DNA of 63,919 bases, taken from assembly GCA_003427395.1 (NCBI GenBank), contig BFEA01000045.1, positions 1,617,264 to 1,681,182 on the forward strand. The letters are read 5' to 3'. The DNA is from Chara braunii. Its lineage: Eukaryota > Plantae > Charophyceae. Position numbers and translations under genes: made by a program. Of this stretch, positions 12,930-60,426 are shown in pieces. The first letter of the stretch is position 1. Every line of letters begins with the position of its first letter. The notes below the pieces were generated by a model. It saw nothing but the letters and a program-made list of their open reading frames with translations, made no database searches and was not told the origin of the DNA.

Positions 12930-13234
12930 AAGGGGGATGGAAGGAACTCAAGCCTCCCAGCCTGCGGACGACAGCCTGGGTGCCTGAGTTCGTGGCCGAC
13001 TTGTTTGGGGGTTTCGACCATATCTTGGATGTGGCCGACTCCATATATCAACTTACGAGAAGAGTACTCTTGTAGGAATACCCTAAACCCTCGTCTTCCG
13101 TCTAAGCTAACACAGTCTCAGATTGGTCAGCTTCAAAAGGGCAACAGGATAACCTTGTTAGGATTATCCTAATGCTCTCATGAAGAGGATGCGCGGCGGT
13201 TCCACACCCTACCGGGAACGCAGAACCTCACGGT

Positions 13235-13530
13235 CGTGTCATGCAGGATGTATTCCTGAAAAAGAATCAGTCACCACTCCGACCGTGCGCGCGTGCTATA
13301 CCTCTCACGACACCCCATGACAGGTCGGGGAGCCACGAGGTACAACTTACCTCTACCCGAGGGGCTGTCACCACCTTCAGGTAGGCGTATCCCTGCTGAG
13401 CTACCGGCCAACATGTGAAGGCTTTTACATGCCTTTGTAGAGGTAGGTCGGCCGAGGGTGTTTGCTCGATCGCTGTAGCATAAAATGGGGTACGCGCAGT
13501 AGGACGCCTAGAACTGACCCGTTAGATATT
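13235..13530 (-). ncRNA. Conserved structured block at the LTR 3' end (U5), element B copy
   Basis: Reverse complement aligns by eye to 48470-48780, with compensatory changes. Confidence 0.5.
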
Positions 13531-15389
13531 CAGGTCGAACTTTTAAACGGCAGTTTATTTTCGCTATTACGTAATGTATCGTTTTCCCACTAAACATCAA
13601 CGAAACCATCTTTCTATCATAGAGCGTCCTATCTTTCTTAACAGGTTAGGACTTAACTGAACATCAGAATATATAGGAGTTAAATTGGACGTTTGATGAA
13701 TATGGAAGTATTATCGCCGAGAACCCTTCCCACTTTCACGTGCTGTGTGTCCGAGACTCTTCAACAATCCAGATCCAGTTCAATCCAAAATCACGCACAA
13801 AACAAACCTGCACAGAATAATGCAAAGACAGTTCACATACCATGCACTAACGGAGTCAACCATCAACCATTGACCTTATCTCTCACTTCCCAAATCATGT
13901 ATGACAACCCTATCTTTCTTGAGACGTAAGCCTAGCCCCCTCACATTTCTTCAAAGGACCCTTGAGAGTGACCATGACCTTTTAGGCAATGACCACAGGT
14001 GACAGTTTTACTGACCACAGGGTTTGAATTTAGAGGTGGGTATCAAGTCCAAGGGGAAAGTTGAATCGGTAACAACCGACCTGTTATTGAGAGGTAACAA
14101 AAAACTTGGTCCTTTCTGTAAAACTTTTTTCTTCAAATGCAATAGATAATCAGGGACATGCACACACAGATCAACAAAGATTCAACACCCCCACTTGATT
14201 TCTCACATATTGATATCTAAGGGTCGAGCCCTTAGACATGGGTAGTGAGCTCTGGGATCGCCATCCCAGGTCTAATCCCTTGTCTTACCCTCACAACCCT
14301 ACCCTAAGCCGTCTATCACTTTCTCCTTTCTCTAAAGGAGTCTCATGCCTGTGTCATAAGTCGTCTTAAGGAAACTCATATTTTTCCTACTCTCAGTCCT
14401 TGCATTTTCTCTCTTGGAAATAAACGTACCGTTTGACGCTTATGTAGACGAGATATAATTCATTCATCGTCGTGACCTTCCATCCGAAAGCCATCGACAA
14501 CTATGGACTACACGGTGATTCTTTTTCTACCAATATTCTTTTTTCCGCGGTCCTATCTTCTTTCCTTGTTTCCCTTTCCGGATACGTGAAGACCTTGCTC
14601 CAACAGGAGCATTATTCTTTCCTTTTTCTTCAATTTGTCCTGTCACACTCAAGTAGTAGATCGATTCAGACATGAATTTTCTGCTACTTGGCCAATACCA
14701 AGCAATTTGTTAGTCGAACAGACAGGTGAGTAAGCCGCACATGAGTATTGATCTCCCTTTTTGGCCCCACTTGATCTAATCAGAGTAGCAGGATAGCTCA
14801 CACATGAGCATCCTTCCTACAACAAATAGTTGAGGCTCCTACAGAAGCACCCTACTACTTGCTTTAGGTATCTTTCTGAAAGATTCGGTTGTCAGTATCC
14901 TTCCATAAGTTAATAACGGTCTGCGTGAAGAATAGGCGACCCGCGCAAGAGCCCCTACTATCACGTGACAAGGTCCTCTTCATGAGAGCATTAGGATAAT
15001 CCTGACAAGGGTACCCTGCTACCCTTCCAAAGTCGACCGCCCTGAGTCCCGGTTAGTTTGGGCAGATGACGAGTGTTTAGGGTATTCCTACAGGAGTACC
15101 CTTCTCGTAAGTGAATATAGAATCAAGTAGGTAATACACAGACCCCAACAAAGACCCGTCTACTACTTTCCTCGGGTAATGAGTAGTCCAGCCGTTAGAC
15201 AAGTAATAGGATGACTCCTACAGAAGCCTCCCTAGTACCGGTCTGGTGGTCGGACTGTCTGAGGGTAAGTAAGTCACGAAAGGAAGAGTAGAAATGTGAT
15301 TTCCTACTTTGTTCGTCAGCCTTAGATTCCCTCGAGCGAATAGGATGGCCCACCCTGGAGCCTTCTTTCATTATTTTCTAAGAATCAGA

Positions 15390-16300
15390 CCCGTCTTCCC
15401 GTCACGACGACAGTCAATTCGGTAGGGAGTAAGGTAACCCACACATTAATATCTAGTGTGGTTCCCAAGTCAACGTCAGACACCCCTGCTCGTCACGACG
15501 ATAGTCGTTACGGTAGAGAGTATCTAATTTATCTCATAAGTATGTTAGCACTCTTTTCCCATCACGACGACAGTCGATCCGGTAGAGAGCACCTAATCTA
15601 GCTCATAAGTTGCTATCAGGTACCTCTGCCCGTCAAGACGACAGTCGATCCGGTAGAGAGTACTTAGATTAGTTCGTAAGTAGTTGTTCGTACTCTCGTC
15701 CCATCATGACGACAGTCGATCCGGTAGAGAGTACCTACTTTAGTTTATGAGTATTTGTTTGTACCCTCGTCCCATCACGACAACAGTCGATCTGATAGAG
15801 AGTACTTAGATTAGTTCGCATGAGTTTGTTTGTACTCTCGTCCCATCACGACGACAGTCGTTCCGGTCGAGAGCACTTAGATTAGTTTATATGTATTTGT
15901 TTGTACTCTCGTCCCATCACAACGACAGTCGATCCGGTAGAGAGTACTAAGATTAGTTCATAAGTGATTGTTTGTACTCTCGTCCCGTGACGACGACAGA
16001 TGTTCCGGTAGAGATTACGTAGATTAGTTCACATGCATCCGTTTGTACCCTCGTTCCATCACGACGATAGTCGATCCGGTAGAGAGCACCTGGAATAACT
16101 CATAAGTATTTGTTAGTGCTCTCTTTCCGTCATGACGACAGTCATTACGGTAGAGAGCACCTAGTTTAGTTCCTAGGTTATTGTTAGAACCCCCTTCCCG
16201 TCACGACGACAGTCGATCTGGTAGAGAGTTCCTAATTGATTTCATGAGTTATTGTTAGATACATCTGCCCTTCATGACGACAGTCGATCTGACAGATAAC
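15390..16300 (-). repeat. Hairpin array of element B: ~13 units, ~71-bp period, ~45-nt conserved hairpin + ~26-nt variable linker
   Basis: Minus-strand consensus GTACTCTCTACCGGATCGACTGTCGTCGTGATGGGACGAGAGTAC. Stem variants are GTAC/GTAC, GTGC/GCAC and GAAC/GTTC. Confidence 0.9.
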
Positions 16301-16661
16301 AAGGTAACTCACACATGAGTACCTACGTGTCAACTCTTAGTCACGTCATGTGTGAGTACCTAAGTGTCAACTCTTAGTCACATCAGCAAATACATAAGTA
16401 GTGTGACGGCTCATACATGAGCCTCCATCGTCCTACTTCATTTTTCAAGTTCAATCAGTCTAGGTTCCTTCTTAGTTAATTTAGGTTCCTTCCATTTCAC
16501 CAAGCAGGATTCTTATTCCAATCATATATCATTTTCCCCTTTTGATTACCGTAGTCCTGAGGAAAGTACAAACAATATATCATACAATCATACGAGCGCT
16601 CCAATAGAAGGGCGTAGCCTGTAAGGGTATATGGGAAGGAGATAGTCATGCTTACCTCATG

Positions 16662-16712
16662 GTTCCCTGCCTCCAGAGTTCCTCCTGAACTCCGGCAGAG
16701 CTCCCGCAATCG
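16662..16712 (-). promoter_or_regulatory. Conserved hairpin upstream of the array (element B)
   Basis: CGATTGCGGGAGCTCTGCCGGAGTTCAGGAGGAACTCTGGAGGCAGGGAAC on the minus strand, followed by GAG|GTAAGC. Confidence 0.65.
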
Positions 16713-17642
16713 CCCTGTTTACTCGGTCACACCCAGTCGTCGTTATTACTTGTCCAATCCTTAGAGTCGGTAAGCCAGAATCACCTTAATGGGAATACAT
16801 CAGTCATGGTTGAAGAGGCAGGTGTCTTGAGGAGACCACACAATGATAAGTAGGGAGGAGGATGGAGCGGGGGTAGGCACCATCACATAGTGACCATGTT
16901 TCTCTCCTTCCCGTTGCCCCATAACCTCCGTCTCTCTCCGGCCGCCGTTTTGTATATATGTCAATTGAAAATAATCAAATAATAGCATTATTAAGGAAAT
17001 AAACCAACAATAATAATGGTTAATTATAATAATAATGATATAATATTAATAATAATAGCAATTATAACAATATTAGAAATAATAACATCATTTCTGATTA
17101 CTTTTTGTCAATGCTCTAAGATGATTCTGTAAATAGCAAGGGATAAGGAAAAGGAAAACATTTTAATCAATGTCTCTCATGCCAAAATTTTTCCCTACTT
17201 CTCACTCCTTCTTCTCATTAACTTCTGCCACACAGCCTTAGGTACAATCACATGCACGTCGTTCCGCATGCGACTCTCTAGGATCAAGTAGGCGTGCTTG
17301 TGGTCCCGCCCGCAGATTATGCTGACGCAATGCTCGTTGTTTCCGTGCATACGTTTGCAGCCGTGCGGGTGCATGCTTGCTGTTCCGCGTGACTGACCAT
17401 AGTCAGCTAATATCCCAGTCCTCTGGCTACCACACACACCACGTCGTACTTGAGCGCAGATATGGTGACAATGTCGCGTTCCCCGCGGCTACTATACAAT
17501 GGATTGTCCTTACGCTGCGTGTCCCTGCGCGCATCCACCCTCCTTACGCCCAATCCCTGCCTCTTGTTCAATAAGGCCTCGTACGTTCACAGTTGAACCT
17601 GCTGCTGTGACTAAGTTACCATTAATACTTCCTAATGATAGC

Positions 17643-17685
<43 letters not shown>

Positions 17686-20299
17686 TTTAATGATTCAAGG
17701 AAGGTAAGATGACAGACTTCTATCTGCCAGGCCATATTGAAAGTAAGAAAGTCTGACATAGTCTGGAAAACAGGACTGCACTTGATACCGTACCAGAATA
17801 CTGAGGTCGAGTATCAATGAGAACATGCTCTCGCCATCACCAACATACGTGTCCAGATTCTTCTCTTACTCGACGCCCAACCTACTCCCTACACAAATTG
17901 GCAATGCAACTGTCGACGTCGGCAATCAACAAGACACCTGAAGATGCCGACCATTGCAGGCTGTCGCCCATAGCAGGTATGTGCCAGCACATTTCCGTCA
18001 TCGTTATCCTTCTCTCTTTCTCTTTTCTCCCTTTCTGTGCCATGTTTGCCCTTTTGTTTGTCTGTATTCATCTATCTGCTCGGTACTTCATGTGTGTCTT
18101 ATTCGTGTCTTGGTTGTTTGTGCAGTTGTCTGTCTGTTTGTTTCTGTTTGTCTGTCTGTCTGTGTTGGTTTCGTATGCCTGACGCTGCCTGTCGCCGCCG
18201 CCGGCCTTTAGCTGTCAGTCTGTATCTGTTTGTGACAGGTCCGCCACATCTGTCAGGTATCGTATCTCACCCTCTTGCTTCACTCGCATGCATGCGTCCA
18301 TTGGCGAGACGGTGAGCTCTTATCCTTCTGTCAAATGATCCATTGGGCAGACTACCTGTCTTGTCTGTTTGTTCTTGTCTGTCTGCCTCCGTATTCGTTT
18401 GTCGACATCCGTCTGTGTCGGTAAGCCAGTTTTGTACCCGTCTGTTCCGACTATCTTCTTGCCAGTCTTTCTTTCCTGTCTTGTTTGTCTGGTCGGTCTG
18501 AATGTCTGCTTGGTCTGTCTGCATATCTGCTCCTCATCCGTTTATCTGTCTGTCAGCGTATCTGTTAGTGTATTTGTCTGTTGGTCTGTGCATGTGCGTA
18601 TATCCGTCTGCTTGTTTGTGTATCTGCCTGAATCTGTCTGTTATGCATATTTGGTCATCTGTCCGACGCTATTTGTATGCGCCCGTCTGTGTCGTGGTCA
18701 CGACTATAAGATTTTAGTCATGGCCGTATCTGCCGTATTCCGGAAAGGCTAAGGCCGTTGCTGCTGTAGGGCCGACGGGCCAAATCCACAGGCTTCCTGC
18801 AGATCCGGAAGCGGCCCCTCATCCGTTGCTTATACCAGGCTAGAGGCAAGTGGGTTGTGGTAATTCCACCCCCACTGAGTCAGCGGTACCCAGTCCCTGT
18901 CTCACTCAGTCCAACCAGCGAGTACCATACGAGACCGTGTGTACCGGTCCTGGTCAGTCCGAGCCCAGTCCAGCAAGTACTGTATAGGCTTGTGTGTACC
19001 CAGGGCAAATGAAAAAGGGGTAGATCAGCGAGCTACAGGAGTATAGGCCGAGAGGCGGAGTCCTGTCATTCATTCATTCCTGCCTTGAGTCATGCGGAAG
19101 TGCTGCCACAGCGTCCCGAGCAAAGTGGTCTGTAGTGACCCCATAAACGAGGTGGGCGAGAGAGGAGCTTGGCCATAGTGATAGGGTAACAGCGGCCATA
19201 GCCGCCATAACTGTAGTGTTAGTGTTAGTGTGTGTGTGTTTATAATCTGCGTCGACATATCTGCGTCTGTGTTTGTTGGTTGGTCCGTCCGACTGTGTCC
19301 GTCGGTTTGCCTGTTTGTTCGCGTCTTGTGGTTAGAGTGTCTGTGTCTGTCTGTTTCCCTGTTTGTGTCCGTTACCTGCCAAGTTGGGCGATGAACATAG
19401 AAACCGAGGATCCGCAATGTGATAAAAATGACGGAATGGACAATGTTGTGCAAGCAAAATCTCAACAAGAAATGTGCATTCTAATACACACAAAATGGTG
19501 CCGAATAGCACAGGGAAGACTCAGATGCAAGGCCTGACCTGCCCAGGACTGACCTCGTTTACACAGTATTAGATAGCAAAGCAAAATGCAAGTGACTAAC
19601 CCAACCAATGTTTGTATGCAGACCAAACATACACCGTATCCTTTACTAGTTGTGAAGGAGCTTGGCGTTGTACACAAGAAGAAAGCGCCAGGTCCAGGTA
19701 TACACAGACGAAGAGGAGGTAATCAGACGAAAGGAAGGAGAGAAATGGGAAAGTCATCAATGCCAAGTCTCTGTCACAAGTCCCAAATAATCCCTTGTTG
19801 CAATGTCTGAAGTTCAAAGGTCGAGTCTGGATCCGATGTCATCAAACTCTTTCTCTCTTCTCTCACAGTCCGCAGATGTAGTGAAGTCAGAGGATGGGAG
19901 GGGGGAGAAGGAGATGGTGGTCAGAGAAGAGGAAGAAGAAAAACTCCCTCTCCCTGTTACGGGCCAGGTACTGTTGGCGCTGTGCTGCAGGTACCCTGAA
20001 GACGAAGCCCGAGTAACAACGCTACAGGTAAGTACCCCTTGTTTCGGCCCTGTTTCTTTCTCTCTCTCTCTCTCTCAAGTGCTATCCTACCTATGGCGCC
20101 CATACTATAGACGACAAATCCTAGATAGCCTATAGTACAATGTTGAATGACAATGGCAACAAATCTTTAAGCCCAAACAGATCTTGCCTCCACCAAGCAG
20201 ACAAGTTCCACTATTGATTACTTTCTCTCTCCCTCCTCTAATAATAATAATGATAATAATAATAATAATAACTATAATAATCGTATAATAACAAAAATA

Positions 20300-20363
<64 letters not shown>

Positions 20364-21859
20364 CAATAATAACGTATAACATCAAACTTCAACAATCAAA
20401 CAGTATCATACATACGAGACCAGATAGTCTTGACCTCGAGATGCCAGTAGAACTACATCACGAGATTCACCAGATAGGAACACACCAAGAATTCATGACT
20501 GACAATGATGAAATAATCCCATCATCATCGTCAACTAAGAACCAGAGCTGATTTCCTATCCGGCGCTCGGCGCCCAGACTACATGTGGCAGTTCCTAACT
20601 AGCCTATACTTCACTGCAGAGGCCGACGACAACAGCTCTAAGAAGCATGATCACACAACGACCAGTGTCGCATGCTTCCTGCACCAGGTATGCCTCTCCT
20701 TTCACTCACAACCTCGTTCCCGAACACACAGATGCCTCGTATTTCCAAGAACCACGATGCCCCCTCTTTCATCTCTCTCTTTCTCTCACTCCTCATACAC
20801 ACACACACATACACTCGTCTCCTTCCCATTCACTCATCCGCCTTCTTTAGTGAGAGCCCGTTTTCCAACTTGCCCGTGTAATTTATTCCTATCGCACTAA
20901 TTCCCCGCATGGTGCATAGCTGGTATTAAAGGTGAGACCCAATCGCATTAGTAGCAAAAATAATAATAATAATAATAATAAAATATTAATATTAATAATA
21001 ATAATATTAAAAAAAACGACTGTATACACTCCATCTTACTTGTCCGATACATTTGAATGGAGGGTGAGCTGCAATCGGGATGTGAAGGTCAGGCATCCGA
21101 CTAAGGTGATAACGAGCTACCTCGGTAAGCCTCTCTTTTTCTCACCTTCACACTTCCTCTCCCTTTCTTCCCTCCGTCCACCTCCTTTCCCTCCAAGTCT
21201 CTGTTCTTCTACCTACAACCCTCTTATCAGTCGAATCTATCAGATAGACGAGGGCCAAGTCATCAAGCAAAGCTGTAAATAGTCAGGGTCTGTGCGGTGC
21301 GTGTCTGGGCTGCTCGATAGCGTAAGCATACGCGCGATCCTTGCCAGTGGTTACGCTTCTCCTTCTCTCCCTCGTTTCTCACCGCCGACTTCATCCTCCT
21401 TTCTTTCCCGTATGCTAGCCCTTCCTCCTTCTTCATTACTTGTTTCCTCCTTCCCTCCAAATGGTAAGCTTTTAAAAGAACTTCTCATAGCGTCCCCAGA
21501 GGCAAACTGCCTCGATCTCCGCAATCCAGACCCTTCACTGGACCATTCAATTGGTAGGAGCAACGGTGGTGTATACAAAGGGCGGGGACGTAATCAGCGC
21601 GAGCTGATGACTCGTGCTTACTAGGCATTCCTCGTTCAAGTTCGATAATTTTACCAATCTACCACCGGTAATAATTAAACAATAGTTAATAATTCGTAAT
21701 AATAAACAATAAAAAATATAAATAATAAATAATAAATAATAAATAATAATAGTAGTAATACTGGCAATAATAAATCATAATAAAATATCCTACCTACGTT
21801 GACGGTCTGATTCATTCACGTTGGATCGTCCATCAGCAATTACGGCTTATACTCCCCTT

Positions 21860-22073
21860 CTCTCTCTCTCTCTCTCACACGCACACACATACGCATACAC
21901 ACATATACACACACATACACACACACACACACAGACAGAAGCTCCATCGATGGATGAGCAAGAACGAAATGAATTTTCAGCTGAAACATGGAAATATACA
22001 CTGTCACTTTTCGATTTGTTCGTCCTATCGATCCAAGTAGCGCACGTTGAGCAACGGGTGGGAGACTTATCTG

Positions 22074-22112
<39 letters not shown>

Positions 22113-22158
22113 TACACACACATACACACACATACACACACATACACACACACACACA

Positions 22159-22199
<41 letters not shown>

Positions 22200-22355
22200 G
22201 CTCCATCGATGGATGAGCAAGAACGGGATGAATTTTTAGCTGAAACATGGAAATATACACTGTCACTTTTCGACTTGCTCATTCCATCGATTTAAGTAGC
22301 GCGCGGCAGGGTGCGTGTTGGAGACTTAGCAGTTGGCCAAGATTGGAGACTTATC

Positions 22356-22426
<71 letters not shown>

Positions 22427-22850
22427 NNNNNNNNNNNNNNNNNNNNNNNNNNNNNNNNNNNNNNNNNNNNNNNNNNNNNNNNNNNNNNNNNNNNNNNNNN
22501 NNNNNNNNNNNNNNNNNNNNNNNNNNNNNNNNNNNNNNNNNNNNNNNNNNNNNNNNNNNNNNNNNNNNNNNNNNNNNNNNNNNNNNNNNNNNNNNNAACG
22601 GAATGAATCTTCCGCTGAAACGTGGAAATATACATTGTCACTTTTTTATTTGCTCATTCTATCGATCCAGGTAGAGTGTCGTGAGGTGCGGGTTGGAGAC
22701 TAGCCGCCTCTCTCTCTTTCTCACACACACACACACACACACGAATGTGAAAATATATACTTTCACGTTGTAGGAATAGATTCATTCGATTTTTATTTAT
22801 TTATTTATTTATTTATTTATTTCGCTTTGCTCATCCTATCGAGGGAAGTA
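21860..22850 (+). repeat. 3-4 tandem ~250-bp units with embedded (CT)n/(CA)n, spanning gap 22427-22596
   Basis: Repeated GCTGAAACATGGAAATATACACTGTCACTTTT core between microsatellites. Confidence 0.8.
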
Positions 22851-23466
22851 GCGTGAGGTCGCCCCGAGGTTAGAGACTTACCCGTCCTCTCTCTCGCTCC
22901 CTTTCTGTCGTCGTCTTCAACGTCGTTGTCGCTGTCAGTCGGTCGTCGTTGTCGTCGTCTGACCGCACTCTTAGGTACGTAGTCTTCCCTTCTCCCTTTT
23001 TCCTTCTCCTTCCTCCCCTTTTACTCCTCTTCTCCTTCCTTTCCTCTTCTTCCTCTTCTTCTTCTTCTCCTCCTCCTCCTTCTTCTTCCCCTTTACATTC
23101 TCGTTCTCCCCCTCCGCGTGCTACTTCCTCTTTCCTGCCGTCCTCCTTTCCTATCGCTGTCTCCACTAGTCGCGTGTTCTCTTCTCCCACTGCACAGTCG
23201 TTTCCCCTCTCGCTGTCCGTACTCCCGCACGCTAATATGCTCGCACGTTTTATTTGCTCGCATGCTCGTTCACTCGCACGCCCACGTGCATCTCTTGCTC
23301 GCACATTCGTCCCCACGCACTTGCCCTTTTCATCTACTTCGCGGGGATTTCCCTTCGCTCGAGATCCTCGAGGAACCGAGACCCCGACGAGGCACTCAGT
23401 CTACGGTTCTCACCGTCCTACTTTCGTGGGTAGTTAACGAATCTGCCCTCTCGTCCAGGGTAGATT

Positions 23467-23504
23467 CTGTCTCTTATACACATCTAGATGTGTATAAGAG
23501 ACAG
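23467..23504. other. Nextera mate-pair junction adapter (assembly artefact)
   Basis: Exact CTGTCTCTTATACACATCT+AGATGTGTATAAGAGACAG, flanked by a ~118-bp duplication (23349-23466 vs 23526-23644). Confidence 0.97.
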
Positions 23505-48780: not shown

Positions 48781-48808
48781 CCCGTGCGGGACTGATGCGC
48801 ACGACAGG

Positions 48809-49848: not shown

Positions 49849-49872
49849 GACTACACTACTACTGAAAAGGAA
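49849..49872 (+). pseudogene. Possible pol (RNase H) remnant
   Basis: Translates DYTTTEKE, matching the Ty3/gypsy RNase H motif NYTTTEKE. A weak integrase-like trace lies near 50720-50810. Confidence 0.45.
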
Positions 49873-52143
49873 GAAAGTGTTTGGATCTTGTTAGACTTGG
49901 TCTTAGACTTGGTCTATGAGGGAAGTAACTACTACGTGCCGCAGGAAAGTAGGGGGTGAATCCCTAATCTTCTCTGTGACATGTGGGTTCGCCAACATAG
50001 GACGAGACAGTACATCTCGAAGCATGTATGATGAGGTTGTTTACCAAATCGCCAAGGGTCTACAAGGTGCAAGTGCTGGAATCGGAGGGAGATGCAGTGA
50101 GGCTTGATCCTTGAGCGGGGTTCAGGAATAAGATGTTATGCCTTAGAGAAAGGATTACACTGCCCTTCGACATAATATATTTCTGTCAAAGCTTCGGGAA
50201 GTATAATATAATGTTTTTTATTACTGTTGCATTTGAAAACCTTCATGGTTGAAAAATTTAACTTGATCATGATATCATTATTTATTCATGATTACTACTT
50301 CTCCATTACGATACATGACATTACAAATTATTATTATTATTATTGCATGATCAGGATCATAGGAAGAGATAAATTTTAAAGAGCGAATGAGAGTTTAGCA
50401 ATAAGGTCCGGTAAGGAACTGATAAGACAGACTGACTCTAAGGCAGGGACTATCCTGCATATCCTTGAGTTGAGGTTGTTCAAATCTGAGTATGTGTGTG
50501 GCTTTGAGGCTATTTTTGGTTCGTTTTAAGTGAGATATCCCAACTTTATACATAATAAAGGTCTGAGGCTTCTTCTTTGTCTGACGATCGCTATTACTCT
50601 CACGTGCGGGGATTTATCCTGATGTATGATGATTTTTTGTGCAAGAGGTGTACAGGACGCATCTCATACGTTTTGTGAATGTGAAATGTGTAAACTGTCT
50701 ACTCTCTGATATACTCGCGCAATCTGCCTACAGACAGACGATAGGCTCGAGTATAAGAAGGAGGCGCGCAGTCCGTTTGGTGAAAATGTGTGAAAATCCC
50801 AAGGGATTTATGAGTCTTTTGATACTCAAATGCTTTTCCATGCCGAACGTTATTTGTTGAGTTGAGACGAGGACCCACAAGTTGGTCTCTCAGTAATGAG
50901 TATTTATGGTTAATTCCCCTCCATGTGGGAGGTGGTTGTGAGAATTTATGGTTGGCTTTCCTCCGTGTGGGAGGTGGTGATGAGACTTTATAAGTGAGTC
51001 CCCTACAAAAGTGGAAGGTGGTTAAATGATTTAAATGGCATGGAAAGCGATTTGAATGATAAAGTCTGACGAGAAAGACCAAGAGAAATTATTATTTTGG
51101 TGAAAATTTTGGAAGGTCGAGAAATTGGTGAAATTTTGAGAGATGTCTGTAAGATGTGTGGTCTGCTTCACTCTGATCAAGTGGGAGGCCATGGCCCTGT
51201 GAATCTGGCGGTGATGTTTTTATGTGGATTTTTGAGAGGACGCAGTGCTCTCTATATTGTTTTACAGAGAGCTGGTAAATGCCTCTGAGACTTTTGAGTG
51301 CGACAGACCTCTGCGTAGTCCCGCAGTAGGCCTGAGATTATTGCGACACACTGTCCAATCACTGTGATGCTGATCTTAAGACATATATGAGAGACCCAGC
51401 TAGGGGTTAATCTGGCATCACTAGGGCGCAACCCTTAGTGTTGGCTGCTGACCGGCGTAAGTTGGCAGCGGGTCCACGTCTCACCAAAGGGTAAGGCTTG
51501 AAGGGTGTGGCCGCCTCAAGAGAGTCTTATTCCCGCGGGATGTCGGAGAGATAAGAGTCGAGTCGTATTTTTTGTGATTCCTGATAGTATCATTTATCAG
51601 GAGAATCGCCAATCGTTGCGCAACCAACGAGGGTACCGTCGCTAAAATAACAACGCGTCGGGCCGTAGATCTGGCTCGATCAACCAGGCAATGGTGGACC
51701 AATATGGAGACCTGACTCTACTGTACTAGACTGCAGGAGAGATATGTGATAAAAGTTATATATATATATATATATTTTTTTTTTTTGAGTATTTCGTGAG
51801 AAAGGCGATGGTGCCTTCAAAAGGTCTCGGTTAGGGCCCGCGTCCTAAGTTATGACCCTGCATGTAGGACGATGACTAAACAGGACACCCAACGATGAAC
51901 CGGCAGATGTCTAGGACAAAGGGAGACGCTTATCAGCAACTACCCAGCATGAACTTTATGTTGTAGTACTGATCTAGTATACCTGCCTGCGCAGGAGACC
52001 CAGAGTAAAACCCTCGCAGCAGCAAGGCATATTGGGTACTGTCTGTTAAACACTCGAACGGATTCAGTCGGCCAGTCGGATTGGTCATTTTCTTGTCAGC
52101 ATTTGGAGTGGTGGATGAATTGATAGTTTTTTTATTATCTGAT

Positions 52144-52178
52144 GTGACGGGGACGTCACTTAATAAGGTTCGGTAAGC
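52144..52178 (+). promoter_or_regulatory. 3' hairpin + degenerate polypurine tract
   Basis: GTGACG-GGGA-CGTCAC-TTAATAAGGTTCGGTAAGC immediately before the 3' LTR; same arrangement as element B. Confidence 0.7.
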
Positions 52179-55100
52179 TGTCGGCGCGAATACCCTTACA
52201 AGGGTATCCGCCCCGGTTTTTGCAAGTGACAGAAGATAAGGTTTGTTTAGGATCTGAGTATACCGTGCGAGGTTGCGGTCATGTTTGATTCGCGTTGACT
52301 AAATGGTTGGCGAGGAGTAGAGAGTGTGTGGGCGCACAGTTTTGAGGCGCGCGCGGTGTTTTTTTTTCTCTTGAGGCTATAGAGCCGGCATGTCCGCCGA
52401 CAACATCTTTTGGCTTGAGTAAAGCTAGGGAAAGTTTCGTTTATTGAACTGACTGTGGTGCACCTTCATTCATGCGGCATGCGCCGTTCATAGTAGATTT
52501 GCTAGGTGGCGGCACACTTGTGCTGCATGTGCGACGATAGCAAAAGGAAGAAATTCGCCCCTTCATACAGCAAGGGTCGGAGCGTAGGCACCATAGACGC
52601 AGGCGGTGGCCGCCGCGCGGTATCATGGGGGCCACAGGTGTGACATACCGAGCAAAATCCGGCCCCTAACCGCATGTGCGTGCGTACAGGTCCGTGGGCT
52701 TGAGTGGGGGATCACGCAGCAGCCTTAGTACTGCTGCTACAGGCCCAGGCTGGCTGTAGCTACCGTTCATATACAAGGCCTCGCGCAACCAATCTAGGCT
52801 TGGGCTTAGCCCTAGTGGTTACAGTGCCAGACTTTCACCGGGTGGATCTTGGGATCGAGGCCAGCAGGGAGCAGCGGAGCAGCGGAGGAGCGCATCGGAG
52901 TGAGCCGAGGGGTTGCGGGTCCTACAGGGCTATCCCCCTTGGCTTTTTGCGGGGGGCTCTGACAGCGGGCCCGCGAGGTGGGACCGAGGTTGGGTTCCGA
53001 TGGTTCCGCTCCCCCTAGCAGCTCTTTCCGAAATTCTCTTCTAGAATTGTTATTATTCTTGTTTTTATTTATTATTTATCTTATCCCACTTCGGAACGTA
53101 GTCCGGTACCGGTCTCAGGACCGGCCGTGACCCCACGCATGAACCGTTGGGGCACGGGCCGAGGAGCCCAACGTACATGCGAGTCGGAGGGTGATTAGCC
53201 CACGAGGCGGAAGAAACCTGTGTGGCAGTTCAGCGTTCGCCAACCCCGGTCTGCTGTGAAAAGGGTTGAGTGGGAGTATGCCCGTCGGGGCCCGCGAGGC
53301 GCAGGACCGGTCACACAGATTCGCCAAGGACCTAAATGTACCATTTGTGTGCCTGTTGGCAAGCAGCCTGTGTGGCCGCAAGACAAGGGGAATTCGCGGT
53401 CAACAACTCTTGCACCGATTGTGGGTGGTGTCGTGCGACCAGCAAAGTATCAAGTCGCCGGTACCGCGAACGACCAGGGCCTTGTCCCATCTGAAAAGGA
53501 ACAGCAGTGGGACCTGACCATGCCCAAAACTTCAGATTGGCCTGTCCCAGATCTGCATATTTTGCAGATTTGGGGCGCAGTGTGAGCATGCCTGTTGGGG
53601 CCTGAAAGGTGGTGAACTGTGCCAGGGCCAAGCGGCCCAAGGCACAGTGGGGAGGCACACAACTGTAGCCAACTGGTCGCATAGAAACCCCCCGTCCTGC
53701 TGTTTCATTTTATTTTTGTTTTATTTTATTTTTGTGTACCCTTTTGTTTCCATCCTGAAACACGGCCCATGTGCTGGTTCCGGGACTGGCAAAGGTACCC
53801 AAGAGCCTAGCTCAGTGGGTACGCCCATGAACTGTTGAAAATATAGACCTCTGCGTAAACCCAGATACAATCAGATGCCCAGAGTAACGTATTTTTTTTG
53901 AATTACCTAGAGGCCAGCCAGTCCCGAGGTATTACCTCATGGCTATGCCCACAGGTTGGTCCTTCGGGATGTCCGTTATGATTGGAAAAATACCGAGGCT
54001 GCGGGGGCGGTCACATGCGTTTGGGCGTTTGCGGTGACTGAAAATCCGGCTTTGCTGCTCCCTGAATTGTAGTCATGAGAGGCAACTTCTGCAGTAGGCC
54101 TGGCACCAGTTCCGGGACTGGTAGTAAGACCAACTGGCTCGACATAGTTGGCACACCCGTGAACTGTTGAAGTGCAGACCTGTGTTCCTGCTCCGCTGGT
54201 ACGAGGCGGGTGATACCGGCCGTGGGCCAGTCACTATGCGTCCCCTCCGGTCCCCTCCCCCTTTCGTTGTTCCTAATTCTTCTTCTAAGTTCTATCAATA
54301 TTTTTAAATTTTTTATTTTTCTTATTTGTTATTTTAGTCTCAGGGGGACGCGGCCCGGTGCGGGTACCGGGACCGGCCGTGAGGGCCAAGAGCCTCGTTC
54401 AGTGGATACACCACTGAACTGTGGAAATACAGACAGTGTCCCAGTCCTTCGGGACATCTAGTAGAGTTGGANNNNNNNNNNNNNNNNNNNNNNNNNNNNN
54501 NNNNNNNNNNNNNNNNNNNNNNNNNNNNNNNNNNNNNNNNNNNNNNNNNNNNNNNNNNNNNNNNNNNNNNNNNNNNNNNNNNNNNNNNNNNNNNNNNNNN
54601 NNNNNNNNNNNNNNNNNNNNNNNNNNNNNNNNNNNNNNNNNNNNNNNNNNNNNNNNNNNNNNNNNNNNNNNNNNNNNNNNNNNNNNNNNNNNNNNNNNNN
54701 NNNNNNNNNNNNNNNNNNNNNNNNNNNNNNNNNNNNNNNNNNNNNNNNNNNNNNNNNNNNNNNNNNNNNNNNNNNNNNNNNNNNNNNNNNNNNNNNNNNN
54801 NNNNNNNNNNNNNNNNNNNNNNNNNNNNNNNNNNNNNNNNNNNNNNNNNNNNNNNNNNNNNNNNNNNNNNNNNNNNNNNNNNNNNNNNNNNNNNNNNNNN
54901 NNNNNNNNNNNNNNNNNNNNNNNNNNNNNNNNNNNNNNNNNNNNNNNNNNNNNNNNNNNNNNNNNNNNNNNNNNNNNNNNNNNNNNNNNNNNNNNNNNNN
55001 NNNNNNNNNNNNNNNNNNNNNNNNNNNNNNNNNNNNNNNNNNNNNNNNNNNNNNNNNNNNNNNNNNNNNNNNNNNNNNNNNNNNNNNNNNNNNNNNNNNN

Positions 55101-58100
55101 NNNNNNNNNNNNNNNNNNNNNNNNNNNNNNNNNNNNNNNNNNNNNNNNNNNNNNNNNNNNNNNNNNNNNNNNNNNNNNNNNNNNNNNNNNNGGGAGAGAA
55201 GAGGTAGAGAGGGCGTACCTCGCTCATTCCGTGATGAAAGTGAGCAAGGAGAGGTGGTAAGTATAGGTTTTTTAGCCGGGCGAAGCAGATGGTAAGGTTA
55301 GATTGGCAGGAGGATTAGTGGTTAAAGTGAGGGATGGAGAGATGGTTGCGCCGAGGCATCCGAAGATGGATATGGCCGGGAATGGAGATCGAGTATCTCG
55401 CTCGTTTCTTGGCGAAACCGAGCGAGAGAAGACTCGTTTCAGGGGCTTTTGGGCCAGGGCGAACTCATTAGTAAAGTTAGTTTTGTTGTTAGAGTAGTGG
55501 GAAAAGGTTGAGTAGGAGAAAGTAGTGCGCGGAGCTCGGGGAACGAAGATATGGAGGGAGCAAAAAGCAGATATCCCAGTCGATTCTTGATAGAATCGAG
55601 TGTGGGAAGGGGCTAATCTGGGATTTTTGGCCATGACGAACAGGATGGCATAGTTAGTTTTCAGGTTGGGGCAATAGTTTTCGAGATACAGTAGGTTTGG
55701 GCTGCGCCTAAGAGAAAGTGGCAATGTACCTTCCCATGTTGGGGTGGAAGATACATTCTCAAGTTATGTAACTTTTTTTATCACTAGTAGAGTGATGAAT
55801 CTCGGGCTCATTCGTGTGGTCCTTGTCAGGATATGGTTCTTTACGTTCGTCACGATCGCGTTGCTCACACAATATCTGGTGGTTATTCTTGTAATCCATC
55901 TCTTAATCTGAGTTGTGCTCGTCAGTACGATAGTATTCGTCGGGATGATCACAGCCATGATGATTCGTGATCCTTTGTTGCTACACGGAAGCCTCCCTCT
56001 CCTTCAAAAGATCACGGTAAGCCTCCTCTGGAGTGATGACCTGTGCATGAGAGAGAGAAAGAGAGAGAGAGAGAGGGAGAAAAGATGAATAGGACGCTCT
56101 ATGCCTCGTTAGTTGAGCTGTCCAATGCATCGCTCTACCTGGCCTGCACAAGACCAAGAAGATGGCATGTATGCATTCTTTTTTTTTTTTTTTTTTTTTT
56201 CCTCTCAACTTTGATTTAGTTTTTAATTATTATTATTGTTATTATTATTTATTTTGAGTTAAGTTGACCGTAATTTTAGTCAGATGCATTCATGATAGTT
56301 GAGTGTAAAGGGGGGACGAGTGATGGGACGAGCACACTAAGAAGCCGTAGAGGGGCAGTTGTATGGGGGTAGCAGGTACAAGTACCAGGAGAAAAGTCAT
56401 GCTGCCCATCTAGTAAGGAGCACGTACCTGGCCAAGATTGCAGACTGATCCCTTGGAAACACAGGCTACAGATACTGAGGGAGACTAGCGGCAAAAGCTG
56501 ATCTGTAGACTCACTTCTGAGAAAGAGCGCTTTGATTAAGCAAGGGACAAATTTGTGCATCTTGCCGGCACTTTGACCCGGCTTATTGAAAGGTCAAAAA
56601 CATGGTGAGCATGGGCAGCGCGACAAAAAGGGGGGGGGGGCAGCCATAAGGAAGACAGGATGACTAAAGCAGGGATGTAGAGCAGGACTGGGGCGTACCT
56701 GTCTGGCGGAAGTTTGTTCGAGCATCCTCGGTAGATGCTCTAGTTGAAGATTGCACGGAGGTTCACCTACTGGTTGCACTTCCTATCCTACTCATTACGA
56801 GAGAGAGGAGCCAGCGACAGACCTGAAGATTCGTTCGCTGGTCTGGGGCGCGGACAGTGCTACACAAAGCAGATGGAGTGAGGGTTGGTCGGTGCACGTT
56901 GCGCCATCCTGCCGCACACTGCGGGTGAACCGCTGCAGGATGCAACGACATGTCGCTGAATGCTACCGCATGCTACTGGATGTTACTGCATGCTGTCGGA
57001 GACTATTGCTTGCTACTATATACTGTTGTGCACATGATGCACACTGCTGCATACGGCGGGCATACTGCTGCCTACTTTTGCCAGACTTGCTGTTAGGAGA
57101 CAACTGTATGAGCAGAGAAAGCGGTGATCCGACGACATGACAGACTAAATGGGCAGGTGCTGTTCGCAGCAGACAGGAGTGGGCAGGTGTGGCAAGCTGT
57201 GTGGAACTTAATGGGCGGCATCTGTATGTGGCTCACAGGTGTGCTTGCGAGAGTCCGTCGTGGTTCGCTGTTGCACTTCTGGCGGAGGGTGCTGTTTCCC
57301 TCAACCTGCTGGCATTGCTGCGCTACCGTGCGTAGCGTAAATTGCTGGGTTGGGCAGTACGGACCGCTGCCTTGGCCATACCTTGTCGTATTGCTGCCCG
57401 CTGATTACGTACAATCGCTGTGCAGGCAGCGCCCTGTTGGTTCGGACTGCGACTATTGCGTTTCGAATCAAACATGGGGGCGTGTTGTATTTGGACGATG
57501 CATTTCTAGGCTGCATAACTACGGTTTGGTCAGAGGGTAGTGCTGTGACTTTGGAGGAAAGGTCAGACTCAGCAAGGGGGTTCGGGGCTACGACCTGGAA
57601 GTCTGTCAGGGTGCTGTTCTCTACATCCTGGTCGCTGTTTGACCACTCTTACTGCGTGTTCTTGGCCATCATTGTGGGGCCCTGAGGCGCATCCTGACTC
57701 CAAGTCCCTCTCCCGTGAGTCTGAGCGCACCTCCCTTGTATCTGAGAGTCTTAATATCTTTACCTCTACCCTTCTTACTCTAAGTCTAATCTGAGGTTAC
57801 GAGAGGAAGGCGGCAGGCGGGATTGCAACCCGTAGGACCGCGCCAAGGCCTCCGTGGGAGGTTCGCCCGACCGATTGTGGGAACTCTGCCGGAACCCAGA
57901 CGGGGTTCTGGAGGCAGGGAACTACAGGTATAACCTCGTTGACACAAGTGATCCCTTCCCCTTACAGCTATCCCTCGTTATCTAAATATAACTATGACAG
58001 GATATTATTCTTTCTTTTGTTATGTATGTCAGGACATGCTTGGTGAAAGGATAAATGAACAACTATATATGAGAGGTCAGACAATGTTTGAGTAAAGTCA

Positions 58101-60426
58101 GACAAAATGAACAGGGGGAAGGTGGGAGGAAGGTGTATTGCATGCTTTGACCCGGTCAACCCAAGACTGAGCTCCTCTAAGTTGACGTGGGCTCAGGGCT
58201 GTATTTTATTTATTGTTGCTGGTTGATTGTATGATTGTGAGGGTTGGGCCTATCCTAAGTTGGACGGACCAATCACTGTTTTTTTCTGGGGTTGCTGAAC
58301 AGGAGGATGGGCACCCTTAGTTGGGAGGTCCCAGAACCCTGGTGTTTCTTTTGTGGGTTGCTGAAAACAGGACTGGGAATACTCTAAGTTGCGTGGACCG
58401 AGTTTTGTATGTGTTTCTTCTGAGGGGAACATCGGTATAAGGCTGAGCGTACCCTTAAGTTAGGGCGGATCAGTCATAAGCCATGAACGTAAAGGCCAAC
58501 GAAAAGTATGCAAATTTGATATATATTATACGAACTTATATCATCTGGCAGACAGGGCACCCTTAGTTGGGAAAGCCAGTCAATAAGTCAGGTAGAATAA
58601 AATGAAGAGAAAGGTGAATGAAGAATATAATGAAGGTAACCAGGGCAGGCTGAGCGTACCCTTAAGTTAGGGCGGTTCAGTCCTATGCTCGTAATAAGAC
58701 AAAGGTGGAGAGAGTTAGTATAAACTTGTTTTATTTTCCCTTCTAAACACAAGGCAGGATTGGGTGTCTCCCTAAGTTGGGTAGGTCTGATTATCTGCCA
58801 AATAAGAAAGAAGCATATGAAGTTCGTGCAAGTACATCAATGGTTGTTCGCCTATATTGTCGTTACGGAGACCAAGCGTACCCTTAAGTTAGGGCGGCTT
58901 AGTCATACGCCGTTGTACTTTGTTCAGACAGATCATGTCTTATGTAACTTAAATTGTTTTAAGCTAGCTAAGCGTACTCTCAAGTTAGGGCGGTCTAGTT
59001 ATATGCTCTTGTCGTTGATGTTATGTAGGTTGGACGTACCCTTAAGTTAGGGCGGTCTGACCATTTGTCGTTCGTACTCGTTTCAGGGAGGTTAGGCACA
59101 CCCCTAAGTTGGGGCAGTCTAATCCTANNNNNNNNNNNNNNNNNNNNNNNNNNNNNNNNNNNNNNNNNNNNNNNNNNNNNNNNNNNNNNNNNNNNNNNNN
59201 NNNNNNNNNNNNNNNNNNNNNNNNNNNNNNNNNNNNNNNNNNNNNNNNNNNNNNNNNNNNNNNNNNNNNNNNNNNNNNNNNNNNNNNNNNNNNNNNNNNN
59301 NNNNNNNNNNNNNNNNNNNNNNNNNNNNNNNNNNNNNNNNNNNNNNNNNNNNNNNNNNNNNNNNNNNNNNNNNNNNNNNNNNNNNNNNNNNNNNNNNNNN
59401 NNNNNNNNNNNNNNNNNNNNNNNNNNNNNNNNNNNNNNNNNNNNNNNNNNNNNNNNNNNNNNNNNNNNNNNNNNNNNNNNNNTTGTGAGAGATGTTTTTT
59501 ATGCATGCTTGGGGGCTCTCACTTTGGGGCGTCCTTTGATAGGATAGTTGCTTTAGACGCTCGCCGAGTGCTGGAGCCATAGGTAGATAAGATGGATGAT
59601 GGGAGGGAAAACTTGGGATGAAGATAGCATTGACCCTGCTAGGAGTTAGGATTAGTGCTAGCCCACAATCTCATCTACAGGTTGTACTAGCTGTCGTTGA
59701 TCCTGAATCATCAAGCAGGTGCCAGAAGTTAGTCCCAAGTATAGTTGTTTTGTCTTTTTTGTCTTTTCAACTCTGTATAAATCTTGGCAGACTCCTGTTC
59801 ATACGGGAAGCGCTGCCGAAATTTCTACAAATCTGAAAGAGTTCGTCATTTTTAGACTTGTAGAAATTCTGAGAGGGCACTTTTTCTACGGGAAGCGCTG
59901 CAGAAATTTTGTAGAACTTGGAGAGTTAGATTATTTTCAGCTAGAGGAAGTTTGGCAATCCATCCTGTTTAGGGGATATGCTGCCGAAGTTTCCTACATA
60001 AACATCAGAGGTTAGTTAGGAAGGTAGGGTTATTTTTTTATCCCTCAAGCATGGCTTGGGTACTGGCATGTGTTGCATTGCAGGTCATCTTTATTCAAAT
60101 TGATTCAAGGCTTGACTAGCATCAAGCTGATCCTACGGGGATCATCTTCTGTTATCTTTTGATAACAGGTCGGTTTCCGACTCAACTCTGATTCACTCTT
60201 GCCACTCAACCTAAAGGCTCTGGCCGTGTGGTTTGATTTATTCGTTGTGTTCTTACCCAAAGTTTAATTGAATGGTCATTTAATAAAGATGCTGAGTACT
60301 TTATTTTGAGAGTTGCGCAAAGAGTGAGGCTTGTATGACTAAAGCAAGGGGTGTGAGCGCAAAGAATGGTTGAAGTTGACCCCGTGTAGTGTGCGCTCTG
60401 TTGATGTGGATCTTTGATGTGATTAC
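52179..60426 (+). repeat. 3' LTR of element A, truncated ~1.1 kb before the expected end
   Basis: Collinear with the 5' LTR up to GATGTGATTAC, then unrelated. Contains two gaps and the second array copy (~58165-59127). Confidence 0.9.

Follow-up and report, generated by a model that had tools for sequence, protein, structure and literature searches.

The locus raises the question of whether two long elements, A and B, that have only short blocks of sequence in common maintain the same RNA architecture, in which a conserved leader hairpin is followed by an array of further hairpins. Both lie within a 63,919-nt window (the whole stretch of DNA analysed) on contig BFEA01000045.1 of Chara braunii. 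The parts that define element A are as follows.

39461..48806, plus strand: 5' LTR of element A, 9,346 bp, TG...CA
48807..52178, plus strand: internal region, 3.4 kb
48809..48827, plus strand: primer-binding site TGGCGCCGTTGCCG..., ATHILA tRNA-Asp/Asn type, 2 nt after the CA of the LTR
51616..51697, plus strand: conserved 3' internal block (counterpart in B, 25114-25194)
52144..52159, plus strand: small hairpin immediately before the 3' LTR; a compensatory change separates it from B 24684-24699
52179..60426, plus strand: 3' LTR, truncated at 60426 and with two N gaps inside; holds a second leader hairpin (57872-57922) and then 12 visible array units

The elements are copies of LTR retrotransposons with very long LTRs and without recognisable protein genes. 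Element A, more than 20 kb in total, has two direct LTRs bounded by TG...CA (the second copy truncated; K2P distance 0.056), and its tRNA primer site directly follows the 5' LTR, at 48809. Position 39461 was the end point of 185 DNA contigs with unlike flanks, which supports an LTR start there. Stop-free frames of the internal region reached at most 75 aa on the plus and 129 aa on the minus strand, and a six-frame Pfam search of 39400-52301 returned zero matches. Since neither gag nor pol was found by Pfam in the scanned regions, there is no domain by which to place the element phylogenetically, and no Gag or other partner gene was present within the window. Summed DNA depth across the internal bins (1,200 to 21,000) indicates that the internal part, compared here in a single full copy, is repeated. 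The tract before the 3' LTR is only moderately purine-rich in both A and B, and is preceded by a conserved hairpin. Of the flanks in which a 4-6-bp target-site duplication would lie, the 3' end of A and the 5' LTR of B fall outside the window.

13190..24663, minus strand: 3' LTR of element B, 11.5 kb in the assembly, a length that counts an N gap and an adapter-like artefact
24664..26400, minus strand: 3' internal region of element B, lacking any retroelement Pfam domain
29655..29985, minus strand: fragment C, a related LTR piece homologous to A 47910-48215

The 5' half of the B LTR contains an N gap (22427-22596) and, at 23329-23644, a palindrome resembling an adapter together with a duplication of 140 bp, which leave its continuity unproven; it also has microsatellite repeats and a piece recurring at 12330-12932. 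These features favour reading B as unrelated pieces joined together, or as an assembly error, with an order that matches that of A by coincidence. We consider this extremely improbable, as the 3' half is free of gaps, six blocks common to A and B keep their order and orientation, and the distance from the 3' internal block to the LTR start is 451 nt in one element and 482 nt in the other. Furthermore, another family, L001, independently joins the upstream (TAA)n region to the leader hairpin.

39472..39493 and from 52190, plus strand, and 24631-24652, minus strand: LTR-start hairpin motif ATACCCTTACAAGGGTATCCGC, identical in A and B
45179..45229, plus strand: conserved leader hairpin of A, 51 nt, 14 pairs
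45232..45240, plus strand: predicted splice-donor motif of A, CAG/GTATAA, cut at 45234/45235
16662..16712, minus strand: leader hairpin of B, followed by GAG/GTAAGC, cut at 16656/16655
45467..46755, plus strand: array A, 17 hairpins spaced 61-112 nt
15394..16289, minus strand: array B, about 12 tandem 71-nt units
48488..48721, plus strand: conserved U5 block of A, with the highest summed DNA depth of the element
13274..13508, minus strand: U5 block of B

As first noted, LTR start, 51-nt hairpin, donor motif, hairpin array and U5 block follow one another in the same order in A (plus strand) and B (minus strand). The LTRs start with TG at 39461, 52179 and 24663, and the common motif ATACCCTTACAAGGGTATCCGC was exact at all three sites (chance expectation, 0.00). 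The array follows the hairpin after 256 nt in A (to the first core) and 372 nt in B, and ends 2,066 and 2,204 nt, respectively, before the LTR end. Overall, the leader hairpin lies 3,628 bp from the LTR end in A and 3,523 bp in B, a difference of 3%; the extra LTR length is mostly upstream of the hairpin (5.7 kb in A, 8.0 kb in B). BLAST joined no parts of arrays A and B, in agreement with the claim that they are unrelated in sequence. The expectation that other families with the hairpin would also have an array at this position was borne out by L001, in which the hairpin and donor motif are followed about 340-420 nt downstream by an unrelated hairpin array. Three families (A, B and L001) thus share the layout, each with an array unrelated to the other two.

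The 51-nt hairpin was conserved at 45179-45229, 57872-57922 and 16712-16662, with AG/GT next in each. All 56 cells were paired across the four copies, with three pairs changed on both sides, eight G-U cells and no A-C cells; these three compensations represent one split between two lineages. The sense strand folded about 5-6 kcal/mol more stably in 4/4 copies, and the donor motif was located 5-6 nt 3' of the hairpin in each of them, despite differing flanks. At this point, 90 DNA contigs from other copies run on with GAGAG/GTAAAC (agreement 0.6).

The array A unit consists of a fixed NAAGTT loop, a 3-4-bp apical stem, an internal loop and a variable outer stem; AAGTT is invariant in 17/17 units, amid variable stems and unrelated spacers. 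The array B unit combines an 8-bp stem carrying a large loop with a CGAC-TGTC-GTCG hairpin. Compensatory change had been claimed for each array. This held for array A (covariation of 0.374 versus 0.283 ± 0.029, 0/500 shuffles) but not for array B (41/500), and such shuffle tests are inflated because the units are related by duplication. Likewise, two-sided cells numbered 22 in array A (9.5 ± 3.1 expected) and 3/165 in array B, and zero two-sided changes occurred among the three units of the L001 array. An ungapped test of the array A outer stems gave p values of 0.02 for Watson-Crick pairs and 0.06 when G-U was allowed. When the two LTRs of A are compared, the array's outer stems differ at 19/192 sites and the spacers at 28/605. 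In array B, the stems vary less than the loops (12% versus 18%, p 0.03).

Strand-specific signals were mixed. The proposed excess of sense-strand G-U over A-C pairs was evident by cell (27:11 in A, 16:6 in B), but by column it was only 6:4 and 5:3. Only 10/17 array A units folded better on the sense strand, 8/11 array B units folded better on the antisense strand, and 100-nt windows of array A showed no unusual stability (z of -1.9 to +1.2). Pair-preserving change is a property of the leader hairpin and array A, and selection for an RNA hairpin platform is only moderately supported: the leader hairpin and array A covary, while array B fails the covariation test and prefers the antisense fold.

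The U5 block was conserved between A and B as noted (75% identity over 238 columns). Of the conserved fold proposed for it, the stable sense strand was recovered (z of -4.2 versus -1.6), but the 11 compensatory pairs it contains are close to what shuffling yields (8.0 ± 2.4), and the antisense fold gives 13.

Two poly(A) libraries (X5 and X7) read the hairpin region on the sense strand, presuming the usual library strand convention; first mates in the hairpin bin were at 14 and 25 on the minus strand and at 0.5 and 0 on the plus strand. The ratio of hairpin to array depth was 29 and 47 in X5 and X7, versus 6.3 for DNA and 3.4 in X6, whose signal is strand-symmetric. Hairpin-to-U5 ratios were 12 and 10, versus 0.45 for DNA and 0.63 in X6. 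This drop in RNA depth after the donor motif fits splicing there. However, it could instead come from expressed copies of other families: their hairpins map at 85% likeness, while their arrays and 75%-identical U5 would not. Among the 15 of 581 joints listed, no RNA reads joined the donor to an acceptor. Summed DNA depth peaked at shared blocks (485,000 and 850,000, versus about 10-30 for unique sequence), which suggests a very abundant lineage, perhaps fragmented by standard annotation.

Taken together, these observations make it plausible, if slightly short of an even chance, that the array marks unspliced RNA for packaging or export. Transcription would start upstream of 45127, which would place the leader hairpin in exon 1 of the sense RNA, and the motif directly after this hairpin may act as a splice donor. 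The array, U5 fold and primer site would then be retained in unspliced RNA alone, with the array as a repeated protein-binding site selecting this RNA. Mobilisation would depend on an autonomous Ty3/gypsy partner, and the LTR part upstream of the hairpin collects element-specific cargo. Retroviral leaders have a TAR-like hairpin near the 5' end, a major splice donor and a structured packaging RNA found only in unspliced transcripts, with donor and packaging signal downstream of the primer site. Here, in contrast, the candidate donor and array would sit within the LTR, upstream of the primer site. A start site upstream of the hairpin also implies strong-stop DNA of at least 3.6 kb, which far exceeds the usual length. 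A precedent exists in BARE, where the RNA that is translated and the RNA that is packaged form separate pools (PMC3735527).

The cargo upstream of the hairpin includes the following.

40380..41727, plus strand: four mutually related modules, located in the 5' portion of the A LTR
41728..41805, plus strand: U6 snRNA 5' fragment (Rfam RF00026, 44 bits, E 6e-08, model 1-77 of 105), adjoining the fourth module
42494..44688, minus strand: antisense donor-rich segment of A, near single-copy
17242..20688, plus strand: antisense donor-rich segment of B, lacking sequence similarity to that of A

The modules resemble truncated tRNA/SINE heads, although ARAGORN at default settings found no tRNA in them. 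Contigs and reads from other copies extend the modules with the B-box-like GTTCGAATCC; this B-box part is absent from the modules of A.

An antisense spliced region had been proposed upstream of the hairpin, and the arrays could accordingly be binding sites for a protein from this unit, acting in anti-silencing or export and coevolving per family. Antisense AGGTA donor motifs were indeed enriched there in both elements (A, 9 versus 1.4 expected, 0/200 shuffles; B, 10 versus 4.0, 1/200), but acceptor motifs were not. Summed DNA depth of the A segment was 28-186, versus 9,000-16,000 for array A, which means that the segment is missing or strongly divergent in most copies that carry the array. 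Its RNA depth was at most 0.45 in all three runs, its frames are broken, no homologues were found, and protein-level likeness between A and B was limited to weak low-complexity pieces. The antisense gene is not a feature of the lineage, and an antisense-encoded protein as the ligand of the arrays is very unlikely.

The arrays could also be neutral passengers beside a functional leader hairpin and U5 fold, if reverse transcriptase slippage or template switching duplicates stem-loops and arm-to-arm copying mimics compensation. Array B would fit this, being a simple tandem repeat of 71 nt that shows no significant covariation, as would the lack of strand preference in folding. Large non-chromovirus elements, moreover, commonly carry tandem arrays in their non-coding parts (PMC6317226), and indels in Sirevirus LTRs cluster at palindromes (PMC4728375). 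Yet one position holds three unrelated arrays while the hairpin-to-end length barely differs, the array A loop is invariant on variable stems between unrelated spacers, and the stems of array B are less variable than its loops; we therefore regard neutrality as rather unlikely. Alternatively, the arrays might be DNA-level cis-regulatory repeats like those of Sireviruses, or their hairpins might serve as templates of silencing-tuning small RNAs; in either case they would retain structure while changing sequence between families. Sirevirus LTRs do combine conserved symmetric structure with family-differing sequence (PMC4728375), and the weak strand preference of our arrays is compatible with a role in DNA. 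However, Sirevirus palindromes occupy the cis-regulatory half of the LTR, on its upstream side, whereas here a transcribed hairpin and donor motif precede the arrays, and sense-strand G-U exceeds A-C. The stems are also short (3-12 bp, with internal loops), and such stems are poor Dicer substrates. Among the 24 sequencing runs listed, none was identified as a small-RNA library. This alternative seems to us unlikely.

The description of a candidate new system was overstated, because non-coding LARDs, arrays in large non-chromovirus elements and family-specific Sirevirus palindrome arrays have already been published. These are probably LARD-like elements with an ATHILA primer site. LARDs such as Sukkula are described as having two LTRs, a primer site, a protein-less core with conserved RNA structure and assumed trans-mobilisation (PMC7215508). 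Element A likewise is large, with LTRs, a primer site and a core without a protein product (no Pfam match, longest frame 129 aa). It differs in that its 9.3-kb LTR exceeds the internal part and its conserved structures are mostly within the LTR, internal conservation across copies having been compared for two short blocks only. The label Athila-like draws solely on the primer site, which equals the ATHILA tRNA-Asp/Asn motif TGGCGCCGTTGCC exactly (10.64898/2026.03.20.713144) and matches that of FIDEL at 18/19 nt (PMC2844528). Non-autonomous derivatives are reported to be common in the ATHILA lineage (Ty3/gypsy non-chromovirus OTA). Brassicaceae ATHILA elements are given LTRs of 1-2 kb (the ATHILAfinder default) and an AT-rich 3-6-bp LTR-PBS spacer (10.64898/2026.03.20.713144), whereas A has a 9.3-kb LTR and the spacer GG. 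An ATHILA ORF1/env-like extra frame had no Pfam match in the scanned regions, a weak criterion given its presence in only 16% of Athila elements (PMC6317226).

Large LTRs (up to about 5 kb) and non-coding tandem arrays are described for Ogre/Tat/Athila elements in the same survey; A resembles them in both respects, but array A is composed of loop-conserved hairpins with unlike spacers rather than a whole-unit satellite. Sirevirus LTRs carry several hairpin-forming repeats whose structure is kept while the sequence varies by family (PMC4728375), as is also the case here. Those palindromes, however, are symmetric and occur in Ty1/copia LTRs of about 1.3 kb, whereas the present arrays consist of asymmetric stem-loops that come after a sense-transcribed hairpin and donor motif. 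Cassandra, Helenus and Ajax are TRIMs of 0.3-1.3 kb driven by a captured promoter (PMC10886601). The LTR of A likewise carries tRNA-like and U6-derived pieces, but they are truncated cargo of a 9-kb LTR, and no role as promoter has been shown for them. Unlike TRIMp3 elements, which stay below about 1.3 kb and whose LTR carries an intact Pol III promoter, A exceeds 20 kb and its modules miss the B-box part.

The 9.3-kb LTR exceeds both the maximum of about 5 kb in PMC6317226 and the 1-2 kb ATHILAfinder default, and LTRs of 9-11 kb are about twice the upper size in that green-plant survey. Extending our preferred reading of the array as a mark of unspliced RNA, an abundant lineage with such LTRs may have moved the retroviral logic of donor and packaging signal into the LTR. 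One splice would remove array, U5 and primer site and leave the spliced RNA uncopyable. The array would be a multivalent, family-specific packaging code, exchanged completely from one family to the next against a constant leader hairpin and 3.5-kb spacing, and non-coding copies would parasitise only a helper whose Gag reads their code. We offer this extended scheme as a doubtful conjecture.

Little is known of the way in which Ty3/gypsy plant elements select their RNA for packaging, or of how a non-coding derivative finds its helper. The present families form a natural comparative series, in which a single position, behind one fixed hairpin and donor motif, is filled by at least three interchangeable hairpin arrays. 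Such a series lends itself to placing array types on a gag phylogeny and to binding assays that use short RNAs.

Similarity between elements A and B, LTR retrotransposons of opposite orientation, is confined to short blocks, and the layout of a leader hairpin, a splice donor motif and a hairpin array was observed in all three families examined, albeit a small number.

Elements, blocks and other features of the window.
39461-60426, plus strand: element A (5' LTR 39461-48806, 3' LTR from 52179)
24663-13190, minus strand: element B, an LTR
29655-29985, minus strand: fragment C, a related LTR piece
45179-45229 (A) and 16712-16662 (B): 51-nt leader hairpin, donor motif AG/GT right after
45467-46755 (A) and 15394-16289 (B): hairpin arrays downstream of the donor
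42494-44688, minus strand: antisense segment of A
40380-41805, in A: four modules resembling tRNA/SINE heads, with a U6 5' fragment fused to the fourth
41728-41805, plus strand, upstream LTR part of A: the U6 5' fragment (Rfam, 44 bits)
21442-21660, B sense strand: degraded 18S rRNA 3' fragment (Rfam E 0.066, under gathering)
26449-29445: degenerate modular repeat with recurring GATCCGAACTTGGC motif, between the B internal region and fragment C
30471-32213: DUF7869 gene interrupted by a single stop codon (matches at E 3e-11 and 1e-31), probably a DNA transposon
10732-11628, plus strand: intact-looking 298-aa ORF, no Pfam match
103-3313 and 5486-7707: unrelated tandem arrays of 93- and 92-bp units
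3504-4033: 135-140-bp array

The start of the leader hairpin lies 3,628 (A) and 3,523 nt (B) from the LTR end and 5,718 and 7,951 nt, respectively, from the LTR start. As the former distances are alike and the latter unlike, the downstream part of the LTR is near-fixed in length and the upstream part variable. The third family is one further locus (L001), found in metagenome contigs by hairpin pattern, which may come from the same host as A and B. Its leader hairpin is the same and is followed by GAG/GTATGT and, starting ~340-420 nt downstream of the hairpin, by three ~160-nt units with GATAAG...CTTATC-type hairpins, for which BLAST gave no match within the window. The L001 hairpin and upstream flank are nearer to B than to A, and the L001 array is unrelated to that of B. 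The original prediction that arrays are unrelated in sequence between families while the layout is kept was thus borne out, with L001 adding a third array type at the same site. Some 130-200 nt before the hairpin, B (16830-16875) and L001 (~1570-1625) have a pyrimidine-rich motif in common, which is partly present in A (~44965-44995) and is a candidate promoter or start region. The leader hairpin pattern matched no viral contig and no prokaryote genome, and the LTR-start and U5 patterns (U5 being the conserved block near the LTR end) matched no viral contig. Beyond its 4 training copies, a leader hairpin covariance model gave a single match, at E 0.67. At gathering score Rfam found nothing in the window, and at E up to 2 its matches in 13000-53000 were U6, part of 18S (weak) and a single chance one.

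In a self-comparison of the window, 39459-47685 of element A recurs at 52177-60426, N gaps aside, and TG opens both LTR copies (39461 and 52179). The flanks of 185 DNA contigs that stop at 39461 are unlike, as expected for the terminus of a repeated insertion. The first LTR copy ends with CA at 48806 and is followed at 48809 by a primer site (TGGCGCCGTTGCCG, the sole match within the window with up to 2 mismatches allowed), which sets the 5' LTR at 9,346 bp; the 3' LTR is truncated at 60426. Divergence between the LTRs is K2P 0.056 (7,134 sites), and these differences were dropped as a selection test because they arose after insertion. The internal part spans 3.4 kb with a longest stop-free frame of 129 aa, and no Pfam family was detected in six frames of 39400-52301. 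The LTR-start hairpin (39472-39493) and the commonest array A core both contain TACCCTTA...AGGG, a sharing that may be chance or possibly marks the LTR-start hairpin as the source of array A.

Element B begins with TG at 24663 and a 22-nt LTR-start motif identical to that of A. Upstream of its LTR, two internal blocks are common to A in the same order, namely, a small hairpin that carries a compensatory substitution and an 80-nt block lying 451 (B) versus 482 nt (A) from the LTR start. The CA end of B at 13190 lacks a primer site, which makes B a 3' LTR. To the right of B lies an older, oppositely oriented piece of the B family (13044-13189 versus 14974-15119, 81.5%). The region 13190-24663 is very unlikely to be a set of unrelated fragments, as it holds blocks shared with A in order and its 3' half is free of gaps; in the 5' half, however, the sequence crosses an N gap and a 140-bp duplication with a palindrome like an adapter, and the 11.5-kb length is therefore uncertain. 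At 23329-23644, the duplication flanks a 38-bp perfect palindrome that we take to resemble a mate-pair junction adapter, and it is a probable assembly artefact. Further repeats in and near B include a set of about four related units, each roughly 150-260 nt long, with CA/TC microsatellites between them (21930-22880). A (TAA)n-bearing segment is duplicated as a palindrome at 12330-12932, between the copies of a 113-bp direct repeat (12096-12208 and 12932-13044), and occurs again at 20185-20540. No Pfam retroelement domains were found in six frames of 7700-22401 and 24664-26405. The six-frame scan comprised these two regions and 39400-52301; in 22402-24663 and most of 26406-39399 three ORFs only were covered.

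The leader hairpin has good support as an RNA-level structure. Its 14 pairs are formed in 56/56 cells, with 8 G-U and 0 A-C, and 3 pairs differ on both sides (a level that 3/500 shuffles reached), all three marking one split. The sense strand is ~5-6 kcal/mol more stable in 4/4 copies. Array A and U5 are fairly supported. Array A consists of 17 units with an invariant AAGTT, spaced 61-112 nt apart; 75.9% of 199 cells are paired, and 22 two-sided changes were counted versus 9.5±3.1 in shuffles, covariation as high occurred in 0/500 shuffles, and every slid control was lower. The outer stem gave a weaker signal in an ungapped test (p 0.02 and 0.06), and sense-strand folding was better in only 10/17 units. 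The U5 alignment fold favored the sense strand (z -4.2, 0/100) over the antisense strand (-1.6). Its compensatory count of 11 did not exceed shuffles (8.0±2.4), and the two-sequence compensatory pairs were dropped as evidence. Array B is weakly supported: in an alignment of 11 units, edge units omitted, 90% of cells were paired, and 41/500 shuffles reached the observed covariation. Compensatory substitution, originally noted for each array, therefore holds for array A but is not significant for array B. Stems of array B were less variable than loops (40/330 versus 81/449, p 0.03), and a different selection of 11 anchored windows had better antisense z-scores in 8 cases. Sense-strand G-U pairs were likewise noted; array B has 16 G-U and 6 A-C cells, but such counts are non-independent, and by column the excess shrinks to 6:4 (A) and 5:3 (B).

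DNA and RNA depths were obtained over 39400-52300 at 85% likeness, with 6-13% of each RNA run sampled. Summed DNA depth in A, which is not copy number, was very uneven: it reached 184,000 at U5, 84,000 where the LTR starts and 83,000 at the hairpin, against 9,000-16,000 in the array and as little as 28-186 over 41986-45002. The lineage behind the conserved blocks is very abundant, and the antisense segment is almost private to element A. First mates in the hairpin bin were minus rather than plus in two RNA runs (14 versus 0.5 in X5, 25 versus 0 in X7) and represent sense RNA under the usual library convention; these reads extend upstream at least to 45127. In a third run (X6), the bin was strand symmetric (45 versus 44) and followed DNA depth, from which we infer a DNA-like component. 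Hairpin/array depth was 29 (X5) and 47 (X7) versus 3.4 (X6) and 6.3 (DNA), and hairpin/U5 depth was 12 and 10 versus 0.63 and 0.45. This fall is compatible with an exon ending at the donor and likewise with expressed families whose array and U5 sit below the mapping threshold. Among the 15 listed of 581 RNA joints, none left from the donor.

AGGTA, a motif picked after sequence inspection, was in excess on the antisense strand of A (9 versus 1.4 expected, 0/200) and B (10 versus 4.0, 1/200), without enrichment on the sense strand. The antisense segments of A and B showed no acceptor-motif enrichment and no shared sequence, and RNA depth in that of A was at most 0.45. Two read-through searches with the antisense frames, at near lengths only, gave 599 and 23 candidates, all with E above 0.01, and Atlas returned nothing above 0.79. 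The A segment may be what is left of a divergent transcript with several exons. The lineage does not conserve it as a gene, and the antisense spliced gene proposed as a lineage feature was not upheld, the segment being near-private, scarcely covered by RNA and without a homologue in these searches.

The upstream LTR part behaves as a cargo region. Other genomic copies of the A modules run on into B-box-like GTTCGAATCC. ARAGORN found no tRNA at default settings, and its relaxed-setting matches were scattered and not trusted. Strongly expressed poly(A) RNA of a related locus, not of this copy, maps to 40447-40512 and 40865-40900 on the sense strand, with an abrupt start at 40447/40448 (~44,000 reads in X6, 1,200 in X7, 300 in X5). 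This start lies 20-21 nt past the module anchor, and the U6 fragment starts 22 nt past the fourth-module anchor. Near the B LTR start (23760-24010), each strand has a tRNA-like stretch with a B-box-like motif, and one of the two shares ~27 nt with an A module.

Element A works like a LARD (PMC7215508) but with the ATHILA primer site: the ATHILA primer motif is that at 48809 (10.64898/2026.03.20.713144), and the FIDEL site (PMC2844528) differs at 1/19 nt. This plant-type primer site and the weak 18S fragment suggest a green-lineage eukaryote as host, possibly a charophyte alga. Brassicaceae ATHILA are unlike A in LTR size and spacer, and A is likened to ATHILA by its primer site, with no pol domain in the scanned regions. 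LTRs of non-chromoviruses reach ~5 kb, with tandem arrays in noncoding parts (PMC6317226). The 2-kb R and 1-kb U5 assigned to Retrosat2 (PMC3485330) are a precedent for a long R-U5. Separate RNA pools are described in BARE (PMC3735527), and spliced ATHILA env RNA is mentioned (PMC7197481). LTRs derived from small RNAs are the subject of PMC10886601. No paper title or abstract with this layout or LTR size was found in a search that mainly covered open-access literature. The architecture is real and unusual, but it is a variation on known kinds and not the new system originally proposed.

Several explanations of the arrays were weighed. Neutral expansion of hairpins is rather unlikely; array B, with its shuffle result, is the more easily accommodated, and the two-sided changes of array A are less so. 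A regulatory or small-RNA role as in Sireviruses is unlikely: palindromes in Sirevirus LTRs also keep structure while sequence varies (PMC4728375), but they occupy the upstream LTR half, unlike the arrays of A and B. That the arrays are sites for an antisense protein is very improbable; the AGGTA enrichment speaks for it, the near-private A segment against it. Mis-assembly of element B can be all but dismissed; its 5' half holds the gap and probable artefact, and its 3' half is gapless.

Instead, we tentatively entertain a mechanism built on the layout, the pairing and the RNA depth pattern, all of which were observed directly. As a whole it is the likeliest of the explanations, though we stop short of considering it probable. 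We infer that transcription would begin upstream of the leader hairpin and that the donor would be used, giving a spliced RNA from which array, U5 and primer site are gone. The unspliced form would keep a multivalent, family-specific hairpin array, and a helper's protein would bind and recognize this array, leading to packaging or export of the unspliced RNA.
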